A stretch of DNA of 64,000 bases from a virus. Taxonomy: Duplodnaviria; Caudoviricetes. The position numbers and the translations under genes were made by a program. Positions 15,842 to 62,146 of this stretch are shown piece after piece (the stretch's first letter is position 1; each line of letters starts with the position of its first letter). Below the pieces are notes generated by a model that worked only from the letters and a program-made list of their open reading frames with translations, did no database searches and was not told the origin of the DNA. The stretch is from positions 9,493-73,492 of IMG/VR virus record IMGVR_UViG_2852501635_000002. One strand, given 5' to 3'.

Positions 15842-16282
15842 ATGGCGACTGAAAAGAAAATGGGTCGCCCTTCTGATTACTTACCAGAGGTGGCGGACGA
15901 TGTATGCGCTCTAATTGCCGATGGTGAAAGTTTGCGTTCTGTATGCAAGCGACCAGGAATGCCAAACACAACTAAAGTCATGCGTTGGTTGCGAGAATAC
16001 CCTGACTTTCGTGAACAGTACGCGAAAGCGATGGAATCAAGAGCTGATGCCGTGTTTGAAGAGTTGTTTGATATTGCTGATGATGTAACAGAAGAACCAT
16101 CGGCAGTTGCTAAGGCAAGGTTAAGGATAGATACCAGAAAGTGGGCTTTAGCAAGAATGAGCCCTAAAAAGTATGGGGACAAGGTAACTCAGGATATTGA
16201 TTTGAAATCATCTGACGGATCAATGTCACCGACAAAAATAGTTCTTGTTGCCGGAGGTAGCAATGACGGTAGCGAGGATTGA
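15842..16282 (+). CDS. terS: Terminase small subunit, Sf6 gp1-like
   Basis: MATEKKMGRPSDY.PEVADD...GESL..VCKRPGMP...AKARLRIDTRKWALARM.PKKYGDKVT. Confidence 0.93.
   Translation: MATEKKMGRPSDYLPEVADDVCALIADGESLRSVCKRPGMPNTTKVMRWLREYPDFREQYAKAMESRADAVFEELFDIADDVTEEPSAVAKARLRIDTRKWALARMSPKKYGDKVTQDIDLKSSDGSMSPTKIVLVAGGSNDGSED
16005..16024 (+). promoter_or_regulatory. Probable pac site core inside terS
   Basis: ACTTTCGTGAACAGTACGCG, copied exactly at 57076-57095; P22 and Sf6 pac sites lie inside terS. Confidence 0.6.
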
Positions 16283-38015: not shown

Positions 38016-40304
38016 ATGTCTACAATTCCAACACAAAATCCAGTTCCAAGTGAAGCACCGCGCGACCTGAAATTTAACTCAGGTAAAATTGACGAGTTTG
38101 TTACGTCAAATAATCACTTTTACACTGACCGTTTTGGTGAAAAGCACTATACAATAGATGGTATTAACTATTTATCAAAACAGGCAATACTTAATTATGG
38201 CTATATCACGAAGAGGTCTTTTGAGTCGGGTAATACCATCATCAATCCTAACGATGTTCTTCTCTGGGAAAGTAATGGCGAGTACTACAGATGGGATGGT
38301 GAACTCCCCAAAGTAGTTAGCGCTACCTCAACCCCTGATTCAGCTGGAGGTGTTGGTAAAGGAAAATGGGTGGGAGTAGGGGATGCTACTCTAAGATCTT
38401 CACTGAAAGATAGTGAAGGTGCTTCCTTAGTTGGAGTTAAAGATGGTGGAACCATTCAGGGTAAACTGGACGAAATAGTAGATGAATTAAATAACCCGTC
38501 TTTTATAAAGCACACCTTTATGGAAGGAATAAAAAATATATCTGCAAGAATGGCCTCTGGAGAGGTAATCAAGATTGCATGCTTCGGTGATTCAACCACA
38601 GATGGAGACACCACAACGGAATTTATTAAAAACCCAACGGATGCGTCTGGCAACGCTATTGGTAACACAGATCACAATATGACCGCACCTAATGCATGGC
38701 CTAATATTCTTCAGGGGATACTTAGGGAAGCGTATGGGAATAATAATATTCATGTTTTTAATGCTGGCTATTCAGGCAAAAAAATTCACGATGGGTGGGC
38801 TGTTCGTAACTATGATAAGGCCATTACAAATAACCCTTATTATGGGAAGCCAGATATTACAATAATTGATTTTGGTTTAAATGACATTAAAGATGGGGTT
38901 GGTATACTTAATGATTACTTGGATCAAACTCAAATATTAATAGATAAAATAAAAGAGCAGGGAACTATACCAATTCTATTGACATCTGGCCCTTGCATTT
39001 GGAGTAATGATGATGGTAGTCAGATTGACAACAAACAAATATCACAACAAATTAATGAAGCGAAAAAATCAATAGCGAAGAAAAATCTTATTGAGATAAT
39101 CAATAAAGCTGATGCATTAAAAGAGGTTATTGAAAATAACTCAGATAACATTAAATGGATTGAAATAATGAAAGATGGACTTCATTTTTCAGACACTGGA
39201 CACCGAATTCAAGCGGGATTTTTATTTTCTATATTTTATGGTGATATTGTAAAATATAATAGAGGCAGGTTAGACATATCATCATTTGACTCAAGGTCTA
39301 ATTCTCCGTGTGGAGTAAATTGGAAATATTCATTTATCGGTTCTAAGTTTGGTGGTTATTCAAGAGTTCCTGAAAGCTATCTTGAAAATGGTAATGATTT
39401 AATAAAATTATTTGTATATTGCACATCTCCTTCAGCAAGCCTGTACTATATTAATGCAGATAATGACGGACAGGGGGTTATAGGGAATAACTCTACAATC
39501 AATGTACTTGCGTTTAATAAAAATAGCATTGAATACAACAAATCACCAAATGGCGTTGGGTTTAATTATGACGCAAACCCTCATAGAAGATTTGCTGATA
39601 AACCAGATTATGTATGTAAATTAAATTATGGGTTAAACGTAGTTACCTTAAAAAAACCATCTGTAAATACTATTACAGACCCATTTGGTTGTTTTTATGG
39701 TTATTTTTCTATTTCTGATTCATATGATGCAAATAACACAAATAATTTATTGAAAAGCAATGGATGTATATTTTCATCAGAGAAAATTTCTTCAGATAGA
39801 ATTAAAATAGAACAACCAGCAAGAGATATTGGTGCAAATTCGATATCTTTCATTAAGGATAAAACTGTTTCTTTGTATTTAGACTTAACTATAAGCAAAG
39901 GGTTTGGGTTAGGTTTAATGGGTGGTGTTTCAGATCTATCAAATTCAACTGATAACTATTCTGTTGATAAATGTTTAATGTTGTATCAAATAGATGAATC
40001 TAGAAAAGGGCTTTATGTTTACAGGGTCAGCAATAAAGGAGTGGTAGCGTTCGATAAATTGGTGGAGTTTTCAGCCAGTGAAGATAAATTACTAATTGAT
40101 TTTTCTTTGAAAGAAAACAATATATACATAAGCGTTTCAACATGGGATAAAAAAACAAATCACACCACTTTTACAATAAGTAGCGGTGATGTGTTAACAA
40201 TACCAACTTCTGGATATTTTGGAGGACTGTATCTAAACGGAAGCGCTCAGGGTGATAGTGGGAGTATATTAATAAATAAAGCGTTTACTGTAGTTAGTAA
40301 CTAA
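38016..40304 (+). CDS. Tailspike with SGNH/GDSL esterase domain
   Basis: Virion-binding N-terminus (DLKFNSGKIDE, YYRWDGELPK); FGDSTT, NAGYSG, FGLND, DGLH blocks. Confidence 0.85.
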   Translation: MSTIPTQNPVPSEAPRDLKFNSGKIDEFVTSNNHFYTDRFGEKHYTIDGINYLSKQAILNYGYITKRSFESGNTIINPNDVLLWESNGEYYRWDGELPKVVSATSTPDSAGGVGKGKWVGVGDATLRSSLKDSEGASLVGVKDGGTIQGKLDEIVDELNNPSFIKHTFMEGIKNISARMASGEVIKIACFGDSTTDGDTTTEFIKNPTDASGNAIGNTDHNMTAPNAWPNILQGILREAYGNNNIHVFNAGYSGKKIHDGWAVRNYDKAITNNPYYGKPDITIIDFGLNDIKDGVGILNDYLDQTQILIDKIKEQGTIPILLTSGPCIWSNDDGSQIDNKQISQQINEAKKSIAKKNLIEIINKADALKEVIENNSDNIKWIEIMKDGLHFSDTGHRIQAGFLFSIFYGDIVKYNRGRLDISSFDSRSNSPCGVNWKYSFIGSKFGGYSRVPESYLENGNDLIKLFVYCTSPSASLYYINADNDGQGVIGNNSTINVLAFNKNSIEYNKSPNGVGFNYDANPHRRFADKPDYVCKLNYGLNVVTLKKPSVNTITDPFGCFYGYFSISDSYDANNTNNLLKSNGCIFSSEKISSDRIKIEQPARDIGANSISFIKDKTVSLYLDLTISKGFGLGLMGGVSDLSNSTDNYSVDKCLMLYQIDESRKGLYVYRVSNKGVVAFDKLVEFSASEDKLLIDFSLKENNIYISVSTWDKKTNHTTFTISSGDVLTIPTSGYFGGLYLNGSAQGDSGSILINKAFTVVSN

Positions 40305-40983: not shown

Positions 40984-42195
40984 ATGAAGCTAACAGCCAG
41001 ACAAGTAGAGACTTCCAAGCCAAAAGAGAAAGCTTATAAACTTTCTGACGGAGGGGGCATGTATTTAGAAGTTGCTCCGAATGGTTCTAAGTATTGGCGT
41101 ATGAAATATAGATATGCTGGTAAAGAGAAAAGGCTGGCTTTAGGTGTATACCCATCAATATCACTCGCACAAGCTAGGGCGAAGAGAGAAGAAGCCAAGC
41201 GCATATTAGCGTTAGGTGATGATCCATCTTTAGTGAAGAAAGCAGAAAAGAGAGAGAAAGAATCTCAAGTAAATAATAGCTTTGAAAAAATTACGCTTGA
41301 ATGGCATGACTATAAAAAGCCGAATTGGTCAAAAGGTTATGCGGATGATTTACTAGAAGCCTTCCAGAAAGATATCTTTCCTTATATTGGTAAAGTTAGC
41401 ATTACAGAAATTAAACCGTTAGATATGTTAGAAGTGCTTCGGAAGTTAGAAAAACGCGGTGTGTTGGATAAGCTTAAAAAGATAAGGCAGGCATGTAACC
41501 AAGTATTCCGCTATGCAATTGTGACAGGACGGGCTGAGTATAATCCCGCATCAGAATTAGCCGGCGCACTGTCTACTCCAAAAGCTAAGCATTTTCCTCA
41601 CTTAAATGTGAATGAGTTACCTGAGTTTTTACAGGCACTATCTGTATGTAGTGGAAGTAAGATCACTCAGATTGCGACAAAGCTATTAATGATAACAGGC
41701 GTTCGTACTATTGAGCTTAGAGCTGCTGAATGGTCAGAAATTGATTTTGATAAAGCTATTTGGGAAATTCCAAAAGAACGTATGAAAATGCGTCGCCCTC
41801 ACATGGTGCCATTATCTACACAGGCCTTAGAATTATTCAAAGAAATACAAACCATAACAGGAAAGTTTAAGTATATCTTTCATGGTAGGAATGATGCTTC
41901 TAAACCAATGAGTGAAGCGGCCATAAATCAGGTTATCAAGCGTATTGGTTATGATGGTAGAGCCACAGGTCACGGATTCAGACATACAATGAGCACCATC
42001 CTGCACGAACAAGGCTATAACACTGCATGGATTGAGACTCAACTTGCACACGTTGATAAAAACTCTATTCGTGGAACGTATAACCATGCTCAGTATATTG
42101 ATGGCCGTAGAGAAATGCTTCAATGGTACGCTGATTATATGGATACTTTAGAGAGCGGGGATAATGTTGTCCACGGTAACTTTAAACGTGCTTAA
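40984..42195 (+). CDS. int: P4-family tyrosine integrase
   Basis: LSDGGGMYL, GVRTIELR, HGFRH, QLAH, YNHAQY. Confidence 0.96.
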   Translation: MKLTARQVETSKPKEKAYKLSDGGGMYLEVAPNGSKYWRMKYRYAGKEKRLALGVYPSISLAQARAKREEAKRILALGDDPSLVKKAEKREKESQVNNSFEKITLEWHDYKKPNWSKGYADDLLEAFQKDIFPYIGKVSITEIKPLDMLEVLRKLEKRGVLDKLKKIRQACNQVFRYAIVTGRAEYNPASELAGALSTPKAKHFPHLNVNELPEFLQALSVCSGSKITQIATKLLMITGVRTIELRAAEWSEIDFDKAIWEIPKERMKMRRPHMVPLSTQALELFKEIQTITGKFKYIFHGRNDASKPMSEAAINQVIKRIGYDGRATGHGFRHTMSTILHEQGYNTAWIETQLAHVDKNSIRGTYNHAQYIDGRREMLQWYADYMDTLESGDNVVHGNFKRA

Positions 42196-48141: not shown

Positions 48142-48486
48142 ATGATAACGAAGAATTTTAAAGTTAATTCACTAGCGAATAGCTACGCAGCTGCTATTTA
48201 CCACGATATTACCACACGTAATGGCGGTGATTGGTTTTCGATGAAGGTAGGCAACAAAACGATTGAAGTTGCCATTATTGACGGTGTGAAAGGTATTCGA
48301 ATGCTCGTTGATAGCTATTTGCTGAAAGCCTTAAAAGGGCAATATCCCACATGGGAGGCAGTTGCTATTGGCTTGATAGAGCAATGTGTCATTAATGGAT
48401 ATGTCACAGGTTATGGTCGAGAGGTGTGGCAAAGCATGATTAATGATATGGGCGACTCTTTCGCTGATAAGGGGGCGTTTCAATGA
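48142..48486 (+). CDS. Hypothetical protein
   Basis: ORF coupled to primase. Confidence 0.65.
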   Translation: MITKNFKVNSLANSYAAAIYHDITTRNGGDWFSMKVGNKTIEVAIIDGVKGIRMLVDSYLLKALKGQYPTWEAVAIGLIEQCVINGYVTGYGREVWQSMINDMGDSFADKGAFQ

Positions 48487-51203
48487 AGCCGATTGATGTT
48501 ATCCGTGAGGTGAAGCTGAAAGCTAACGGACAATGGCAAGCTATATTATCTCACCTTGGGGCAGAAGTGCCCCTAAACACGCACACGGCTTGCCCTCATT
48601 GTGGTGGTAAAGACCGGTTTAGATTTGATAACAAGGACGGTAATGGCACGTTTATTTGTAATCAGTGCGGTTCTGGTGATGGATTAGATCTCGTTCAGCG
48701 TGTGTTAGGTGTCAGTGTAACCGAAGCTGCAAAAGAAGTTGCTAACATAATTGGTATTGATACCCGTTCAGCGTGTCCACCAGCCTACCGTCGTTCTGAG
48801 ATAAAAGCACAACAAGACGAACTGAAAGCGCAGCAAGCCGAAAAACAAGCTAACGAGAAGAGAGAGAAGCATAAACGCTTTATTGAACGGTATAACCGCA
48901 CTATTGCCAATGTTCAACGTGGGAGATCTGACTATCTCAAGGCTAAGGGGCTGCATGGTTTTGAAATGGATTTATTACAGGACGGTTCTCTTATCATTCC
49001 ATTATTGGACGCTGGTGGCGTTATTACTGGCGCACAAACTATTAAGCCTAATGGTGATAAGCGTTTGCTGTCAGATAGCGCAAAGTCAGGCAGTTATTAC
49101 CCCATCAATGAGCCTGTAAACGTCTCTACGGTGATTATCGCTGAAGGATTAGCAACCGCCCTAACGTGTCACTTAATCCAACCAGAAGCGCACACAGTTG
49201 CGGCAATTGATGCGGGAAACCTCATTCATGTAGCTAAGGTAATGCGAGTTAAGTATCCAGAGAGCAAGATTATTATTGCTGGGGATAACGATATTAAGCC
49301 AGGCCAAGACAATACAGGGAAATTAGCGGCAGAAAAGGCAGCTAAGGTGGTTAATGGTGTCGCTGTTTTACCCCCTACTGATGATAAAGCCGATTGGGAT
49401 GACTACCGCCTATCACACGGTATTGATGCGGCAAGACAGGCATTTAATGAAATATTAGAGCAGCAAGGAGGCAAGGTGATGATAGAAACTAGGGTAAGCA
49501 ATGAAGTCGTTAAACCTGACCCAATGAAGCCACGCATTGAATCACGTAAAGAGGGGGTATTTCTTGTTACACCGAAAGCCGACAAGGAAACAGGGGAAAT
49601 CATCAATCATGAGCAGTGGTTATCAAATGCTATCAAGCGGATCACTAAAGGTGTTAATGACCTCAATCAAGAGTATTTGATTATTGAGTGGGGGAATAAC
49701 AATGTTCAGGCAATACCGACAGGCGATATAGGAGAGCGTGAAGGATGGCGCACATTAAAAAACGCGGGGTTATTTGTCACTACCAAATCAGGATTAAGAC
49801 AGTCGTTTTCTGATTGGCTGTTACGTCAACCATTCAAAGAGGACTGGAGTATTACGAATAAATCAGGTTGGCACAAAGGCGCATATATCATGCCCGATGG
49901 TTCAATTATCGGCACACCTGAACAACCGATATTTTTTAACGGACAAAGCGCAGCAGCAACTGCCTACAAAGCAAGTGGAACGGTGGAAAGCTGGCGAAAT
50001 GATGTAGCGCGATTGGCTAACGGTAATAGTTTTATGATGTTTACGATTGGCGCCGCATTATCTGCACCGATGACGAGTCTTACGGGGGCTGACAGCTTTG
50101 GTATTCACATTTACGCTCAATCGACAGCAGGGAAAAGTACCACGGCAGATATGGCCGTGAGTTTATACGGTGATCCTGATTTACAGCGCTTAACATGGTA
50201 TGGCACTGAATACGGTATGACTAACGAAGCTGTAGCGCACAATGACGGACTTTTGTATTTGGATGAAGTCGGACAAGGGGCAGACCCTAAACACGTCTAC
50301 AAATCGGCTTACACGCTGTTTAATGGTAAAGGTAAGATCCAAGGTGCGAAGGAGGGCGGCAATAGGCAAGTTCAAAGCTGGCGGACAGTGGCCATTAGTA
50401 CAGGAGAAAAGGATATTGAGACCTTTTTATTAAGTTCGGGTGTGAAAGTCAATGCAGGGCAGCTAGTACGATTACTCAACATCCCTATTGAACGCGCCAC
50501 TGAACTACATGAATGTGAAACAGGGAAAGCCCACGCAGATTTAATTAAGATAAATTGCCGTTCTAGCTATGGGGCCGCAGGACGTTATTGGATTGAATAT
50601 CTATCAAATCATAAAGATGAAGCTAAAGAAGCCTATAGAACTGCACAACAACGCTGGAGTAAATTAATTCCGAGCAGTTACGGAGAACAAGTTCATCGAG
50701 CCAGTGATCGATTCGCTACTATAGAAGCGGCTTTGATAATGGGCCGTGTGATTACTGGCTGGAATGAACAAGATTGTAAGGATGCTGTTCAAGCCGCGTT
50801 TAACGCTTGGATTGCTGAGTTCGGCACAGGTAATAAAGAGATTGAACAGATTAAAGATCAGACGATCGCTTTTTTAAGTACGTATGGAATGAGTCGATTT
50901 GCTCCATTGCCTTATGATGAGCAATCTTTACCTATCAGAGAACTTGCAGGGTACAGAGTTAAATCAAACACGCAGGATGAAGCGCCCATATTATTTTATA
51001 CATTGCCAACAGTATTTAAGAACGAGATAGCCAAAACGTTCAATACGGACACTTTCGCTGATGCCCTGCATAAACTAGGTATTTTAAAAAAGCCTTCCAA
51101 TGGGAAAGGATATCAAGGCAGAACACCGCGTTTGAAACATTTAGGCAACATTCAGCAACGCGCCTATATTTTGATGCTTGTTCCTGATGAAGAGGAGGAG
51201 TGA
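48483..51203 (+). CDS. Primase-helicase (P4 alpha zinc finger, TOPRIM, DUF927)
   Basis: CPHCGGKDRFRFD..CNQCG, AEGLATA, AGDND, QSTAGKST, LDEVGQ. Confidence 0.93.
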   Translation: MKPIDVIREVKLKANGQWQAILSHLGAEVPLNTHTACPHCGGKDRFRFDNKDGNGTFICNQCGSGDGLDLVQRVLGVSVTEAAKEVANIIGIDTRSACPPAYRRSEIKAQQDELKAQQAEKQANEKREKHKRFIERYNRTIANVQRGRSDYLKAKGLHGFEMDLLQDGSLIIPLLDAGGVITGAQTIKPNGDKRLLSDSAKSGSYYPINEPVNVSTVIIAEGLATALTCHLIQPEAHTVAAIDAGNLIHVAKVMRVKYPESKIIIAGDNDIKPGQDNTGKLAAEKAAKVVNGVAVLPPTDDKADWDDYRLSHGIDAARQAFNEILEQQGGKVMIETRVSNEVVKPDPMKPRIESRKEGVFLVTPKADKETGEIINHEQWLSNAIKRITKGVNDLNQEYLIIEWGNNNVQAIPTGDIGEREGWRTLKNAGLFVTTKSGLRQSFSDWLLRQPFKEDWSITNKSGWHKGAYIMPDGSIIGTPEQPIFFNGQSAAATAYKASGTVESWRNDVARLANGNSFMMFTIGAALSAPMTSLTGADSFGIHIYAQSTAGKSTTADMAVSLYGDPDLQRLTWYGTEYGMTNEAVAHNDGLLYLDEVGQGADPKHVYKSAYTLFNGKGKIQGAKEGGNRQVQSWRTVAISTGEKDIETFLLSSGVKVNAGQLVRLLNIPIERATELHECETGKAHADLIKINCRSSYGAAGRYWIEYLSNHKDEAKEAYRTAQQRWSKLIPSSYGEQVHRASDRFATIEAALIMGRVITGWNEQDCKDAVQAAFNAWIAEFGTGNKEIEQIKDQTIAFLSTYGMSRFAPLPYDEQSLPIRELAGYRVKSNTQDEAPILFYTLPTVFKNEIAKTFNTDTFADALHKLGILKKPSNGKGYQGRTPRLKHLGNIQQRAYILMLVPDEEEE

Positions 51204-57433: not shown

Positions 57434-57500
57434 AACAGTGCCCCTCATAACCTCTACGTAGAACGGAGAAATCTGGTTTGCGATACGTTTGGGGCTTTCT
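57434..57500 (+). ncRNA. Candidate RNA antitoxin upstream of Abi gene
   Basis: Nested stems, TAGACA-16-TATTAT promoter at 57399-57426, T-rich tail. Confidence 0.6.
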
Positions 57501-57533
57501 TTTATCTACTATCTGATAATTTTCCATGCTGCT

Positions 57534-58529
57534 ATGCACCCTCTAAAACCTCATCTAACGTATTTTGACCAAATAAAAAAGCTAGAAAAACGAGGAATGA
57601 GTTTTGAGGATCTACCTCCTGAGCAGGCGGTAAAGAAAATAATGAATATTGGATATTACAGGCTATCTGGGTATTGGTATCCATTCCGTAAGTTAAAGTT
57701 AATCCCACCAGTAGCACCCGATGAAGCCAGACGTGAAGAAACATTCCTTGAGGGTACAACCTTTACAACGGTATACGCACACTATTTATTTGATGTAAAA
57801 CTAAGAAGTTCTATTTTTTATGGAATAGAACGAATTGAAACTTATCTTAAAGCAAAAATAGCTTACGAACTAGGTAAAGTATCCCCTACGGCATACAAAG
57901 ATAAGAATATCATCCAATACAGACATCACTACCGACATGATACATGGCTAGAAAAGTTAGATTCTTTAATAGAGCGAAATAGTGATAAAGATTGTATACG
58001 ATGGAATTTAGATAAGTATGGGGATATTCCTATATGGGCTATCGTTGATATTTGGGATTTCGGTACAATGTCTCGCTTCTACGGAATGCTTGAAGATAAA
58101 TACAAACATCAAATTTGTAAATCGCTTGGCTTTCTAAAGCCTAACTCAGCAAATGTAAGAGATGGACTGAAAACAGCATTAGAGCACCTTAATACAGTTA
58201 GAAACAGGTGTGCCCACCATGCGCGTTTATGGAATACCGATTTTTCAGACTCAAAAATTAGCATCGATGTGTTAGATAATATTGATTTAACAGCCTCGCG
58301 CTTGTCTCCAAAAAGCCCTGAACTATCAAGAATGGCAGGTATCATATTTTTAATATGGAGTCTGACCAAGAGAATAAGTTGTAATTCTACATGGCTAAGT
58401 TCAGTAAATGATCATTTAGAAAAACATCAGGGCGTTATTCCGTTTAATTCAATGGGATTCGATAATAACAATATCTCAGGATTAAAAAATCTATTGGATA
58501 AGGAAAAAGAACAATCAGCCCAATCATAA
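57534..58529 (+). CDS. Abi_2 (AbiD/AbiF) HEPN abortive infection protein
   Basis: IGYYRLSGY, IERIE, PIWAIVDIWDFG, RNRCAHH (RxxxxH). Confidence 0.92.
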   Translation: MHPLKPHLTYFDQIKKLEKRGMSFEDLPPEQAVKKIMNIGYYRLSGYWYPFRKLKLIPPVAPDEARREETFLEGTTFTTVYAHYLFDVKLRSSIFYGIERIETYLKAKIAYELGKVSPTAYKDKNIIQYRHHYRHDTWLEKLDSLIERNSDKDCIRWNLDKYGDIPIWAIVDIWDFGTMSRFYGMLEDKYKHQICKSLGFLKPNSANVRDGLKTALEHLNTVRNRCAHHARLWNTDFSDSKISIDVLDNIDLTASRLSPKSPELSRMAGIIFLIWSLTKRISCNSTWLSSVNDHLEKHQGVIPFNSMGFDNNNISGLKNLLDKEKEQSAQS

Positions 58530-58810
58530 GCCAACCCAAATCAAATAAACTTTAATGATTTTCAGGCGCGCTAGCAATAAGTTTTCGGACACGTTAGAAA
58601 GGTTGTAAATAGAGGCTGATAGCGACAAATATAGACATTAAATCCTAACAAATCCTAACGTTTTTCTAATACCTAGATCCTAAGTTTTCTTAAGGTAAAT
58701 TGCGCATTCAATGCTAAGATTTGCTAAGGTTTTACTATCCACTTAGTATTATGATTAGATAGCTGATAACTTCAGTATATGTTGGGAGTAGCTGTAATGA
58801 TAAAACTAAT

Positions 58811-59482
58811 TTGAGAATAGAAATGCTAATAAATAAATTAAAAAATAAAAATGAGTCACCAGAAGACATTATAGAGAATTTGATATATGCCTATCAAAAC
58901 TCAAGAGAAACATATGTTGAAAACAAGAGAGTGTTTCGTGGGCGTAGTCATTCTGTCTCGGGTATTTTTGAAGATCTATTTGCTGATTATTTATCAAAAA
59001 ATTTACCTGATAGTAATCAATATTTCGTAGACCAGCAGTTGTTTTCATCAGCAGCAAATATACGATTTTTCCCAGATATATTAATTATGAATGATAAAAT
59101 AAATCGCGATATCATAGACTTAAAGCTTGATTTTGGATGGTCTAGAAATGATGTTTTTTCATTTTGTGATACGTGGAATAAAAAAATAGATAAGTTAAAA
59201 GGAACGAGTTTCACTTTCAATGATGGGATAACTAAAGAAAAAAAGAATGGTTTTTTTTCTGATAATTTAAAATATCATGTAGTAGTTTCGACAAAATTAA
59301 ATAATGGAAGTAATTTTATTGAAATAAAAGATAAAGTGACAAAAAATTTGGAGCATGTTGAGTTATATATACTCACTGACAAGGTACATCCGAATGATTA
59401 CAATAGCACTGCCGAAGAACGGGTAAAAAATATACATATATGCATGAGTGAATTTTCAAGGTTAATGAATAATTTATCATAA
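58811..59482 (+). CDS. Hypothetical protein, possible PD-(D/E)xK nuclease
   Basis: FEDLFA...FPDILI...IIDLKLD; very AT-rich. Confidence 0.55.
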   Translation: MRIEMLINKLKNKNESPEDIIENLIYAYQNSRETYVENKRVFRGRSHSVSGIFEDLFADYLSKNLPDSNQYFVDQQLFSSAANIRFFPDILIMNDKINRDIIDLKLDFGWSRNDVFSFCDTWNKKIDKLKGTSFTFNDGITKEKKNGFFSDNLKYHVVVSTKLNNGSNFIEIKDKVTKNLEHVELYILTDKVHPNDYNSTAEERVKNIHICMSEFSRLMNNLS

Positions 59483-60023: not shown

Positions 60024-60833
60024 GATAATAGTCCGTTATTAACTCAGTGAGCGCTTATTATATCAGCGTATAACACTGTTATACAGATTAGAAAATATAT
60101 CATTGCTAGTGGATTTAATGAATAAGTCCATAACTTAAAGTTAGAGTAACCTACTGTAAAACAAGCAAAGCGTATTCTTGCGCCTTGTAACGGATTGAAT
60201 ACATAGCAAAGCTCAAAAATGAGTGCTGTACTGTGGTGATTATCGCCATAGTCGGAAAGGGTAACAGTTGAAATGCTACCCTTGGTATCAAAACCACAAA
60301 TTAGTGATTTTAGCTAAAGTAGCTAAATATTAGCCAATACAGCTAACCACATAAACATAGTGGTACTATGATGATCCGTTGACTTTCAAACGTGAGGTAT
60401 CCACTAAGGTATCCACCGAAAAGGCTATATTTTACTGGATACTTTACCCACTAAATGTTGACAATTGTTAACATCAGAACCAGACAAAACCTGACATCAT
60501 TTACTTATTTTAGGTACGCAATAAATACGTATTTAATTCTCGCAATTCACTATAATTAAATAAAATCATGGTATTACATAAAGGTATGCAGAATAGTGCG
60601 CATTGAAATGATATTATTCGCATCGGTAACTATTTGATTATCCCGAGGCCGTCACTTTGGGGCGTACTGAAATAGCGTATTTCAATCTGCTAACGTGGTT
60701 GCCATTTTGATGGTTGCCACTTTGGTTGCCAGCAAAACGGCATATTTTACGCTAGTGGATTGATAACCTTTGATTGTTCCAATTCAGCACAATCAAGGTA
60801 TGGCGGAAATAACCACTCCTTTGAGGTATAGCC

Positions 60834-61022
60834 ATGTTACAACGAGAAACAATAGAAGCCGTTATGATGGAGTTAGCCCACCAGCAAGGGCATTCACTCA
60901 ATGGGCGTGATCGATTAGCGATTAGAACAGGTGTAGCACAGACAATGCAGGCTAAAGAACGTCACAGACGAAGAATGACAGCACCTACCTACCAATGGAC
61001 GAAGCCAGCACCAAAAAGATAA
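60834..61022 (+). CDS. Small hypothetical protein inside the site array
   Basis: RBS GAGGT, 62 aa. Confidence 0.6.
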   Translation: MLQRETIEAVMMELAHQQGHSLNGRDRLAIRTGVAQTMQAKERHRRRMTAPTYQWTKPAPKR

Positions 61023-61547
61023 TAGGTCGCCTTGAAATTAAGGGGACGTGAGGCTCTGAAATCGGAGGCTCGTCACTGGCTGGCAATATTCCAATAATGG
61101 CTACGAGGTAAAAGTAACCACAATGCAAATAAGCACTCTGGATAAATATCAATAAGTTATCTATGCTGAGAGATAAGATTACAACAAAGAGCGACGGCAA
61201 GATTACGGCAAGGTATTAACAATCAGGTTTCAGTCGGTCAATTTGACCGTTAGCAATAAAAACAATGTGTTGCCAACTCTTACCATTGGTCACTGAAACG
61301 ATGACCAATGAGCGTTAATCTGGTTTTGTTACAGAATTAAGTATTATCAATCAGTTGTATTTTGATTCCGTCGATTTACCGGAATTAAGTATAATCAACA
61401 GGTTATATCTACATACGGGATAATCCCGTATCATCATGGATAAATTAACGTTTAGATCACCCCTAGAAATTGGAATTATTACCTATACAACCTGAATCCT
61501 ACCAGTGTTTTATTTTAACCAATAGCTTATATTGTGATGGTATCAAG

Positions 61548-61835
61548 ATGAATAAACCAAAAATGAGAAAAGCAAAATCAATCAGGATCACCACATCAGG
61601 AACGGTAATCAAAGCACCTGAGCGAGTTAAAACAGCCACAGGTAAAGTTATGGCCACAATGACTATTCAGGCTGAGAGTGACAAGCGTAGCCCGTACCCA
61701 TTAAAGATAGTGGCATTCGATATTAACGCGCTGGAGCTAATGACCTGCCAGAAAGGAAACAAAGTAACTGCTACAGGTCGCTATGAATGGTTTAATGGTT
61801 ATCAGCTAACAGGGGCGCAGATAGTTGCTGGTTAG
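61548..61835 (+). CDS. OB-fold ssDNA-binding-like protein
   Basis: SGTVIKAPE, IVAF..AL, KGNKVTATGR. Confidence 0.6.
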   Translation: MNKPKMRKAKSIRITTSGTVIKAPERVKTATGKVMATMTIQAESDKRSPYPLKIVAFDINALELMTCQKGNKVTATGRYEWFNGYQLTGAQIVAG

Positions 61836-62146
61836 TAAAACTTAGTATCAATAGTTACATTAGGCTACTGGCCTACTTATACGCTTGACGTTAATGTTAT
61901 ATAAATTAATTTCTATAAGTCCGAATTGAGCATGGTTAAATGTACGCTAAAGTTAGTTGTATCAAAACTTACATGATGAATGAGATAAAAATATCCAGCA
62001 ACTATAGGTAACTATATAAGATGTTTTTGTTGGTCTAATGGCATATTTTCTCTGTATTTATTCGCTTCTGGCATTTTAGCCTTATAGGTTAGATTCAATG
62101 TGGGTCGATAGACTTGCTTGGATAACAACCTAAGAGAAAGCTTAAA

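Follow-up and report, generated by a model that had tools for sequence, protein, structure and literature searches.

Direct repeats are part of the pac site of phage SPP1, which extends into the beginning of terS (PMC4737164). In phage P22 pac lies inside terS (gene 3), and pac-like copies direct packaging, according to the accessible portion of PMC11260489, which also describes the pac site of phage ES18 as still unknown. Among satellites, the defence hotspot of P4 directly adjoins cos (available part of PMC9122126), and a 14-bp match to the pac site of phage ICP1 is needed by PLE (PMC11417361). The isolated DNA-binding domain of SF6 TerS exhibited little sequence preference on pac DNA in vitro, as far as the available sections of the report go (PMC4737164), and a review characterises cos and pac motifs as “often small, degenerate, or unknown”, which blocks the prediction of who mobilises whom (PMC11389934). 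It can be said that mimicry of packaging signals by satellites (P4 cos, PLE), the location of pac inside terS and the existence of pseudo-pac sites are already known. The locus described here is a non-coding array of short paired repeats, the words of which recur inside terS genes of phages. It was found in a stretch of 64,000 nucleotides (the window), which is part of a provirus record.

The island and its repeat array

The window is occupied up to about position 40300 by a prophage with a TerS of the Sf6 type, and a separate island extends from 40984 onward, with its right end beyond the window. Next to the tyrosine integrase and the primase-helicase (Table 1), the island carries AntA, Ash and ORF6N genes, an AlpA-like gene (a PHROG excisionase-regulator match) and a “beta”/PD-Lambda-2-like gene. 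No TerS or TerL was found among the island ORFs scanned, which were a part of all its ORFs, and none of psu, sid and delta was identified in the island. An ORF of 170 aa in the window was considered as TerS and dismissed, being lipoprotein-like and unlike the TerS-like protein of a related locus (L015). Between 53376 and 57068 there are a tape-measure gene of 1085 aa (PHROG 1107, E 2.7e-131) and a gene resembling Neck1/tail-completion proteins; no other structural genes were found in the island, so the combination is unusual for a P4-like or PICI-type element.

The array is situated in the 281-bp gap between the AbiD/Abi_2 gene and an ORF of 223 aa, and consists of three clean 21-bp units and one decayed unit, all on the + strand and all outside long ORFs. 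Each unit is built of a 7-mer repeated at a 10-bp period; the words differ from one unit to another, while the two halves within each unit agree. An earlier note on this DNA had described five tandem fragments here, four of them with 10-bp-period direct repeats, as resembling recognition regions of terS. The unit sequences quoted in it are present where it had placed them, and its reading frame does give ILTNPNV, ILSFLKV and MLRFAKV for units 1-3; the repeat is confirmed for these three, whereas the first unit, the core of which had been quoted from 58622 and the full span of which is given in Table 1, is decayed.

Table 1. Location in the window of the array units and of the surrounding features
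Feature	Position	Strand	Remarks
Tyrosine integrase with arm-binding domain	40984-42195	+	Pfam; left part of the island
DUF927/Toprim primase-helicase	48483-51203	+	Pfam
AbiD/Abi_2 abortive-infection gene	57489-58529	+	Pfam Abi_2, E 1.8e-50; PADLOC AbiD, E 7.4e-58
Conserved left flank	58575-58618	+	Contains the fifth fragment, 58579-58605 (KFSDTLERL)
Unit 0	58619-58639	+	Decayed; half-sites TAGCGAC/TATAGAC, agreeing at 5/7
Unit 1	58642-58662	+	TCCTAAC twice, 0 mismatches; terS segment of the ILTNPNV type
Unit 2	58677-58697	+	TCCTAAG/TCTTAAG, 1 mismatch; half-sites of the (L/I)LRNPKV terS type
TGCGCA hexamer	58701-58706		Between units 2 and 3
Unit 3	58711-58731	+	TGCTAAG twice, 0 mismatches; half-sites of the (M/L)LRNAKV terS type
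Candidate sigma-70 promoter of the 223-aa gene	58721-58749	+	TTGCTA, 17 nt, TAGTAT; overlaps unit 3
223-aa gene	58811-59482	+	Right of the array; travels with the last unit in L002-L007
Array II	60454-60497	-	Two units; 1.7 kb downstream of array I
Solitary unit	61828-61848	-	TACTAAG/TACTAAC

Pairs of 7-mers that start with T, with a 10-bp period and at most one mismatch, number 25 on the + strand of the 64-kb window, and the array (array I) is the sole cluster of two or more among them. The pattern TNCTAASNNNTNCTAAS, with at most one mismatch allowed, has 6 matches in the window against 1.3 expected, a count reached by 1 of 100 shuffles. No structured RNA was indicated in the array region (folding z = +1.9) and no Rfam family matched it, and the 281-bp gap gave blastn matches in phage and plasmid collections only at E values of at least 0.3. 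The exact 20-mer of unit 1 was present in one of 301 genomes in a scan sampled at the family level, so the element is not common at that level; the whole 4.7-kb stretch is present, as assembled contigs, in 15 sequencing runs.

The array is a feature of the island that borders variable defence cargo. AbiD adjoins it in the window, with the “beta”/PD-Lambda-2-like gene as further defence cargo on its other side, and in another member of the same island family (L013) the array is placed upstream of Abi_2 on the same strand, the reverse of the order in the window, so that the defence gene stands on the opposite side; variable defence cargo beside the packaging signal is a hallmark of P4. The protein of 223 aa had no Pfam, PHROG, PADLOC or NCBIfam match. 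A PD...D-x-K-like motif (FPDILI ... IDLKLD) was noticed in it by eye, and the gene may be a nuclease-type defence gene, as its sequence would suggest. The candidate promoter of this gene was likewise read by eye; it agrees at 8/12 positions, falls below the threshold of the promoter scan and is unlisted there.

The fifth fragment, which the earlier note had also taken for a piece of terS, belongs to a conserved left flank. The same stretch of about 45 nt precedes the arrays of L004, L005, L007, L013, L014, L031, L036 and L133, and a degenerate scan for its reading gave 9 loci, all of the non-coding array type by context (L133 was checked directly), with no terS ORF among the 9. Compared with 80 Sf6-type terS genes, 58579-58605 had 12/27 mismatches, and 60/60 shuffles were as good or better; against 278 terS loci it gave no blastn-short match at E<=1. 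The fragment is thus present and conserved beside arrays, but it is not a repeat, and its origin as a copy of terS is rejected on account of the shuffle test, the blastn-short search and its absence from terS ORFs.

Another companion of the units is the hexamer TGCGCA, of which the window contains 4 copies, one in the array at 58701 and one near array II at 60597. In 126 loci it reaches 1.83/kb within 50 nt of non-coding units and 0.24/kb elsewhere, a density about 7.6 times higher near the units when the kinship of the loci is ignored. The word AATTGCGCA(C/T) is often repeated next to TGCTAAG pairs in unrelated contigs.

Array II, for which counterparts with four or five units exist in L002 and L003, has the half-sites TGTCAGG, TGTTAAC/TGTCAAC and TGACAAG, and these had no counterpart among the terS loci compared. 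The stretch 60300-61450 of the window is poor in ORFs and rich in other repeats: TGGCAACCA occurs three times at a spacing of 12-14 bp (about 60690-60735), GTGGATACCT twice (about 60390-60415), TTTAGCTA repeats lie at about 60305-60345, and two copies of about 23 nt are found 49 bp apart at about 61330-61400. This stretch could be an origin or a control region of the island.

Identity of the units with a segment of terS

Unit 1 is identical to Terminase_2 terS genes at 21/21 positions, and at 23/23 when the two preceding A are counted. Its exact 20-mer was found at 24 viral loci, namely in 17 TerS-like ORFs and 7 non-coding arrays and nowhere else; the 17 ORFs are homologous, measure about 100-277 aa and lie on contigs with a GC content of 0.37-0.56, and the ORF of one such locus (L053) is Terminase_2 by Pfam. 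For unit 2, relatives carry a perfect TCCTAAG pair, which, together with a coding spacer, occurs at 53 viral loci, in 50 of them in frame within ORFs of at least 100 aa in a TerS context, reading (L/I)L(R/S)NPKV; taken whole, unit 2 reaches only 16/21 with the best of the sampled terS 21-mers. Unit 3 agrees at 19/21 positions with the commonest (M/L)LRNAKV form of terS, both half-sites being identical and the spacer alone different. The TGCTAAG pair with a coding spacer is present at at least 116 viral loci; 108 of the matches listed are in frame in ORFs of at least 100 aa, and the in-frame ORFs among the matches listed read (M/L)L(R/S)NAKV and come from contigs with a GC content of 0.28-0.70. 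All 8 of these ORFs tested by Pfam were Terminase_2. Two loci (L024 and L273) that had been taken for terS with the exact form of unit 3 were rejected, the ORF being a glucosaminidase.

The decayed unit 0 is identical at 16/21 positions to a terS 21-mer of the IATNCDV type, of which an intact unit is found in the array of L018. When 58560-58760 was compared by blastn-short with the 278 terS loci (1.16 Mb), matches at E<=1 were limited to 58640-58662 (23/23) and 58710-58733 (21/23), that is to units 1 and 3, and unit 0 had none. The likeness to terS is confined to the units, which are therefore not remnants of a gene, and the homology expected of a terS pseudogene beyond the short unit was absent from the array. 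It follows from these comparisons that the likeness to the LLRNAKV segment of Terminase_2, which the earlier note had pointed out, was correct, and that the best matches do fall in terS. Its description of the fragments as copies of the variable terS segment of other phages stands, by sequence, for units 1-3 and has to be abandoned for KFSDTLERL: a sequence carried by phages is equalled by unit 1 and by the half-sites of units 2 and 3, not by unit 0 or the fifth fragment.

A weak blastn match of unit 1 (E = 3) lies inside the terS of Streptococcus suis phage phiS10, and a second weak match falls in the S. suis satellite Javan574, where six units of like build form a non-coding array. Two Terminase_2 terS genes are present in a Providencia genome with the same island (G001). 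In each, a perfect repeat of 10-bp period directly follows the codons of the third HTH helix, with half-sites other than those of the array.

The segment was followed in a set of 81 terS genes, which comprised the best 80 of 136 relatives in a protein alignment and a gene of G001; because a match to one of the two search peptides had to contain ASEILTN, the set is biased in its proteins, not in their codons. In this set (best 80 of 136 and the G001 gene) the seven codons aligned to ILTNLNV are hypervariable and encode 23 different peptides, yet the half-sites agree within 1 mismatch in 69 of the 81 genes, against a background of 0.93% of 16,524 codon-aligned windows in the same genes. Among the 34 unique 21-mers of the set, a half-site differs from its own partner by 0.79 mismatches on average and from partners in other variants by 2.77. 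This matching of own pairs was reached in 0 of 10,000 shuffles, which ignore the relatedness among the genes. When synonymous codons were resampled, 3.5% of pairs fell within 1 mismatch, as compared with 27/34 observed. Nine words were seen as perfect pairs (TTGCGAC, TAGTAAC, TAGTAAG, TCCTAAG, TCCTAAC, TCTTAAC, TGATAAG, TGATAAC and TGCTAAC), and the two half-sites change together despite their different codon phases. In these genes the sequence is constrained as DNA and not only as protein, and a peptide so variable, over half-sites that remain matched and co-change, argues for a DNA site embedded in terS.

In an alignment of the query TerS with SF6 TerS (3zqp), ILTNLNV stands opposite NLQKPAI. 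The terS gene of SPP1 crosses the origin of its record (NC_004166.2), and bases 19-25 and 29-35 are both CGCACGT, again at a 10-bp period. This repeat falls in codons homologous to the variable terS segment. We take it to be the “box c” of SPP1, and base 1 of the record is presumably the pac cut. As judged from its sequence, the seven-codon segment is a DNA site, placed where SPP1 has a comparable repeat. Genes of this terS kind are found, for example, in sequenced phages of Klebsiella, Hafnia and Vibrio. In the terS of Vibrio phage CP-T1 (L135) no repeat occurs at the LLxNxxV position; a perfect 8-mer repeat with a 10-bp period (CTGTAGCG twice) is found there in the codons of the preceding helix.

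Related arrays and the turnover of their units

A search with the 223-aa protein led to six related loci (L002-L007). The related arrays hold from 1 to 6 or more units in differing combinations: there are six in L004 and about seven in L005, in the array of L007 one 10-bp copy of unit 3 is missing, and L006 (Providencia huashanensis, 2400-2885) has kept only the last unit, beside the 223-aa gene. The remainder of that array has been replaced by an IS-type transposase gene, the end of which directly abuts this last unit. Three units matching the IVRNSKV, IATNCDV and IVTNSNV forms of terS are present in the array of L018, which, like L015, is a DUF927-primase island. In L015 the array follows a gene of 175 aa that matches the PHROG “terminase small subunit” (E 1.3e-11), and the array region had no megablast match in complete genomes of E. 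coli. An integrase lies near the array in L021, and in L017/L032 yet another sequence is found downstream.

A set of 49 loci (508 kb) yielded 109 distinct non-coding units in arrays. Compared with independent terS 21-mers, 5 of the 109 are identical, 12 lie within 1 mismatch and 16 within 2, a limit that random repeat units of the same build attain 0.18% of the time; units 1-3 are in the 49 loci by construction of the search, whereas the other matching units had not been used in searches. The five identical units are terS 21-mers letter for letter, including the spacer and the flanking AT/GT. A metagenome scan for the form with a non-coding spacer gave 78 matches, of which 69 were TGCTAAG/TGCTAAG out of 16 possible combinations; 72 of the 78 are outside long ORFs, often near further pairs, and their flanks range from AT-rich to very GC-rich.

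Outside Proteobacteria, the Streptococcus satellite phage Javan574 (L009, 1490-1650) has six units between its integrase and repressor genes, each unit being an 8-mer repeated at a 10-bp period and followed by a T run, and each using a different word. Its first unit resembles the terS of phiS10 and of Javan84/85, and related arrays are present in Javan560, Javan594 and phiJH1301-3.

Upstream of the arrays of L004 (2608-2640) and L005 (about 2510-2545) there is an element of which 17 nt are identical to the resident Sf6-type terS, at 16004-16020 of the window in the codons of DFREQY. Over the whole 33-mer this likeness is marginal, 6/60 shuffles being as good, and it was not retained. The arrays of L025 and L029 begin with a piece similar to the same element.

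Interpretation and comparison with described systems

On balance, the array probably brings together pac-type sites recognised by TerS proteins of different specificity, by means of which an island with no terminase among its scanned ORFs could be packaged by several helpers; the argument proceeds by analogy with SPP1 and P22, after which the repeats inside terS would have a pac function and their copies on the island would direct its packaging. The site in terS would consist of two 7-bp half-sites one helical turn apart, placed in the codons for the end of the third TerS HTH helix and the following turn. Each unit would copy a different specificity type (ILTNPNV, (L/I)LRNPKV, (M/L)LRNAKV and, decayed, IATNCDV). 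The TerS ring of a matching helper, superinfecting or co-resident, would dock on its unit and recruit TerL, and the island, equipped with integrase, primase-helicase and AlpA-like genes and with no terminase among the ORFs scanned, would be packaged headful into the capsids of the helper. The holding of several types would widen the range of helpers that can be used. In favour of this reading are the identity of the units with terS, the joint change of the half-sites within terS, the turnover of units between related islands, the place of the array next to variable defence cargo, the array of the same build in the S. suis satellite and the negative outcome of the searches for RNA structure and RNA families.

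Several observations speak against this pac reading. No matching helper was seen in the same record or in G001, since the TerS of the resident prophage is of the Sf6 type and not Terminase_2, by which this prophage was rejected as the matching helper, and the half-sites of the G001 genes are other ones. Unit 2, taken whole, agrees at only 16/21 positions and unit 0 is decayed, and the orientation of array II, opposite and 1.7 kb downstream, is odd for a single packaging origin. The little preference of the SF6 DNA-binding domain alone, as given in the available part of PMC4737164, also weighs against it, as do the overlap of unit 3 with a weak candidate promoter and the presence of the unit-1 20-mer in only one of the 301 genomes.

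Because the terS evidence is the same for both, the units could instead be a decoy that titrates the TerS of helpers off the phage genome, as a means of interference or defence for a replicating island, with packaging of the island absent or secondary. The position of the array among anti-phage genes would suit such a role, and the presence of two arrays in an island, each with several units, would add to the binding capacity; however, so few sites per copy would bind little TerS unless the island were strongly amplified, the interference of satellites with TerS is, to our knowledge, carried out by proteins, and a sink has no need of the directionality seen in an array with all its units on one strand. 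A decoy is considered unlikely. A regulatory role would also fit an array that lies just upstream of a same-strand cargo gene in all relatives of the family and the unit 3 of which overlaps a candidate -35. The units would then serve as an infection sensor, bound by TerS or by another phage HTH protein reading the same words, which would switch the neighbouring cargo or defence gene on or off at its promoter; Abi_2 stands downstream on the same strand in L013, and the 223-aa gene kept the last unit beside it in L006 although the IS had taken away all the others. Nevertheless, no fewer than three sequences follow the array in different islands (Abi_2, the 223-aa gene and a further one in L017/L032), so that the fixed downstream gene and promoter of a single-gene operator were not observed, and in L006 it is the last unit alone that stays with the 223-aa gene. 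The candidate promoter is below the scan threshold, units far from it have no clear role, and in the Streptococcus satellite the units are directed at the 3' end of the repressor gene; we hold a sensor to be quite unlikely.

Response regulators, excisionases and replication initiators commonly bind direct repeats with a 10-bp period, and both a primase and an AlpA-like gene are present on the island, from which it could be proposed that the array serves some island or host protein as operators or iterons, its likeness to terS being convergent or incidental. Such an origin is improbable for units that differ while their halves agree, unlike iterons, and five of which, over the whole set of arrays, are exact terS 21-mers down to the spacer and the flanking AT/GT; moreover, 7 kb separate the primase gene from the array, which is not made of copies of one word beside an initiator gene. 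Hardly credible is functionless debris, either degraded terS remnants or products of slippage. The decay of unit 0 and the loss of a 10-bp copy of unit 3 in L007 are what debris would leave, but in each unit only 19-23 nt resemble terS and the flanks show no homology to it, several different types are concatenated in one orientation, and the layout recurs in distant lineages and at no fewer than 72 non-coding metagenome sites in the TGCTAAG-pair scan.

To return to the reading of the units as pac-type sites, a wider form of it is put forward tentatively and with more doubt than trust: in a very large group of Terminase_2 phages the pac recognition site may coincide with the 21 bases coding for the DNA-reading end of TerS, so that site and reader would co-diversify, and islands from Proteobacteria to Streptococcus might stockpile “pac libraries” for many helpers. 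The pac sites of most headful phages are unknown, and if the 10-bp pair is the recognition site, it could be read directly from thousands of phage genomes. The arrays would then list the helper types that an island can exploit, and the matching of helpers and satellites, together with the transduction of defence or other cargo, would become testable from sequence. It would mean that satellites widen their range of helpers by collecting signals rather than proteins, that helper-satellite pairs are predictable from DNA alone, and that a record of an arms race over terminase specificity can be read in sequence.

In the full-text literature, subscription journals and supplementary files excluded, no description was found of arrays of different pac mimics, nor, within the same limits, of a 10-bp pair in the reading segment of Terminase_2. 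SPP1 is comparable in that its TerS (G1P) is of the Terminase_2 family and binds direct-repeat boxes that reach gene 1; in contrast, its site is in the phage itself, is one site of one phage and includes upstream parts too, whereas the array of the window is non-coding, is borne by an island and places several types side by side. P22 likewise has its recognition site in the terS reading frame, and short copies of it elsewhere direct packaging (available part of PMC11260489), but its TerS is of a different family and its site is single and asymmetric with no 10-bp direct repeat, and the pac-like copies on the Salmonella chromosome are scattered single sites, not an array. Also comparable are P4 cos and PLE, where a dependent or terminase-less element has a copy of the packaging signal of its helper. 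In those satellites there is one signal for one helper lineage, while the islands described here combine several putative specificities in one array, and related islands differ in how many and which of them they carry.
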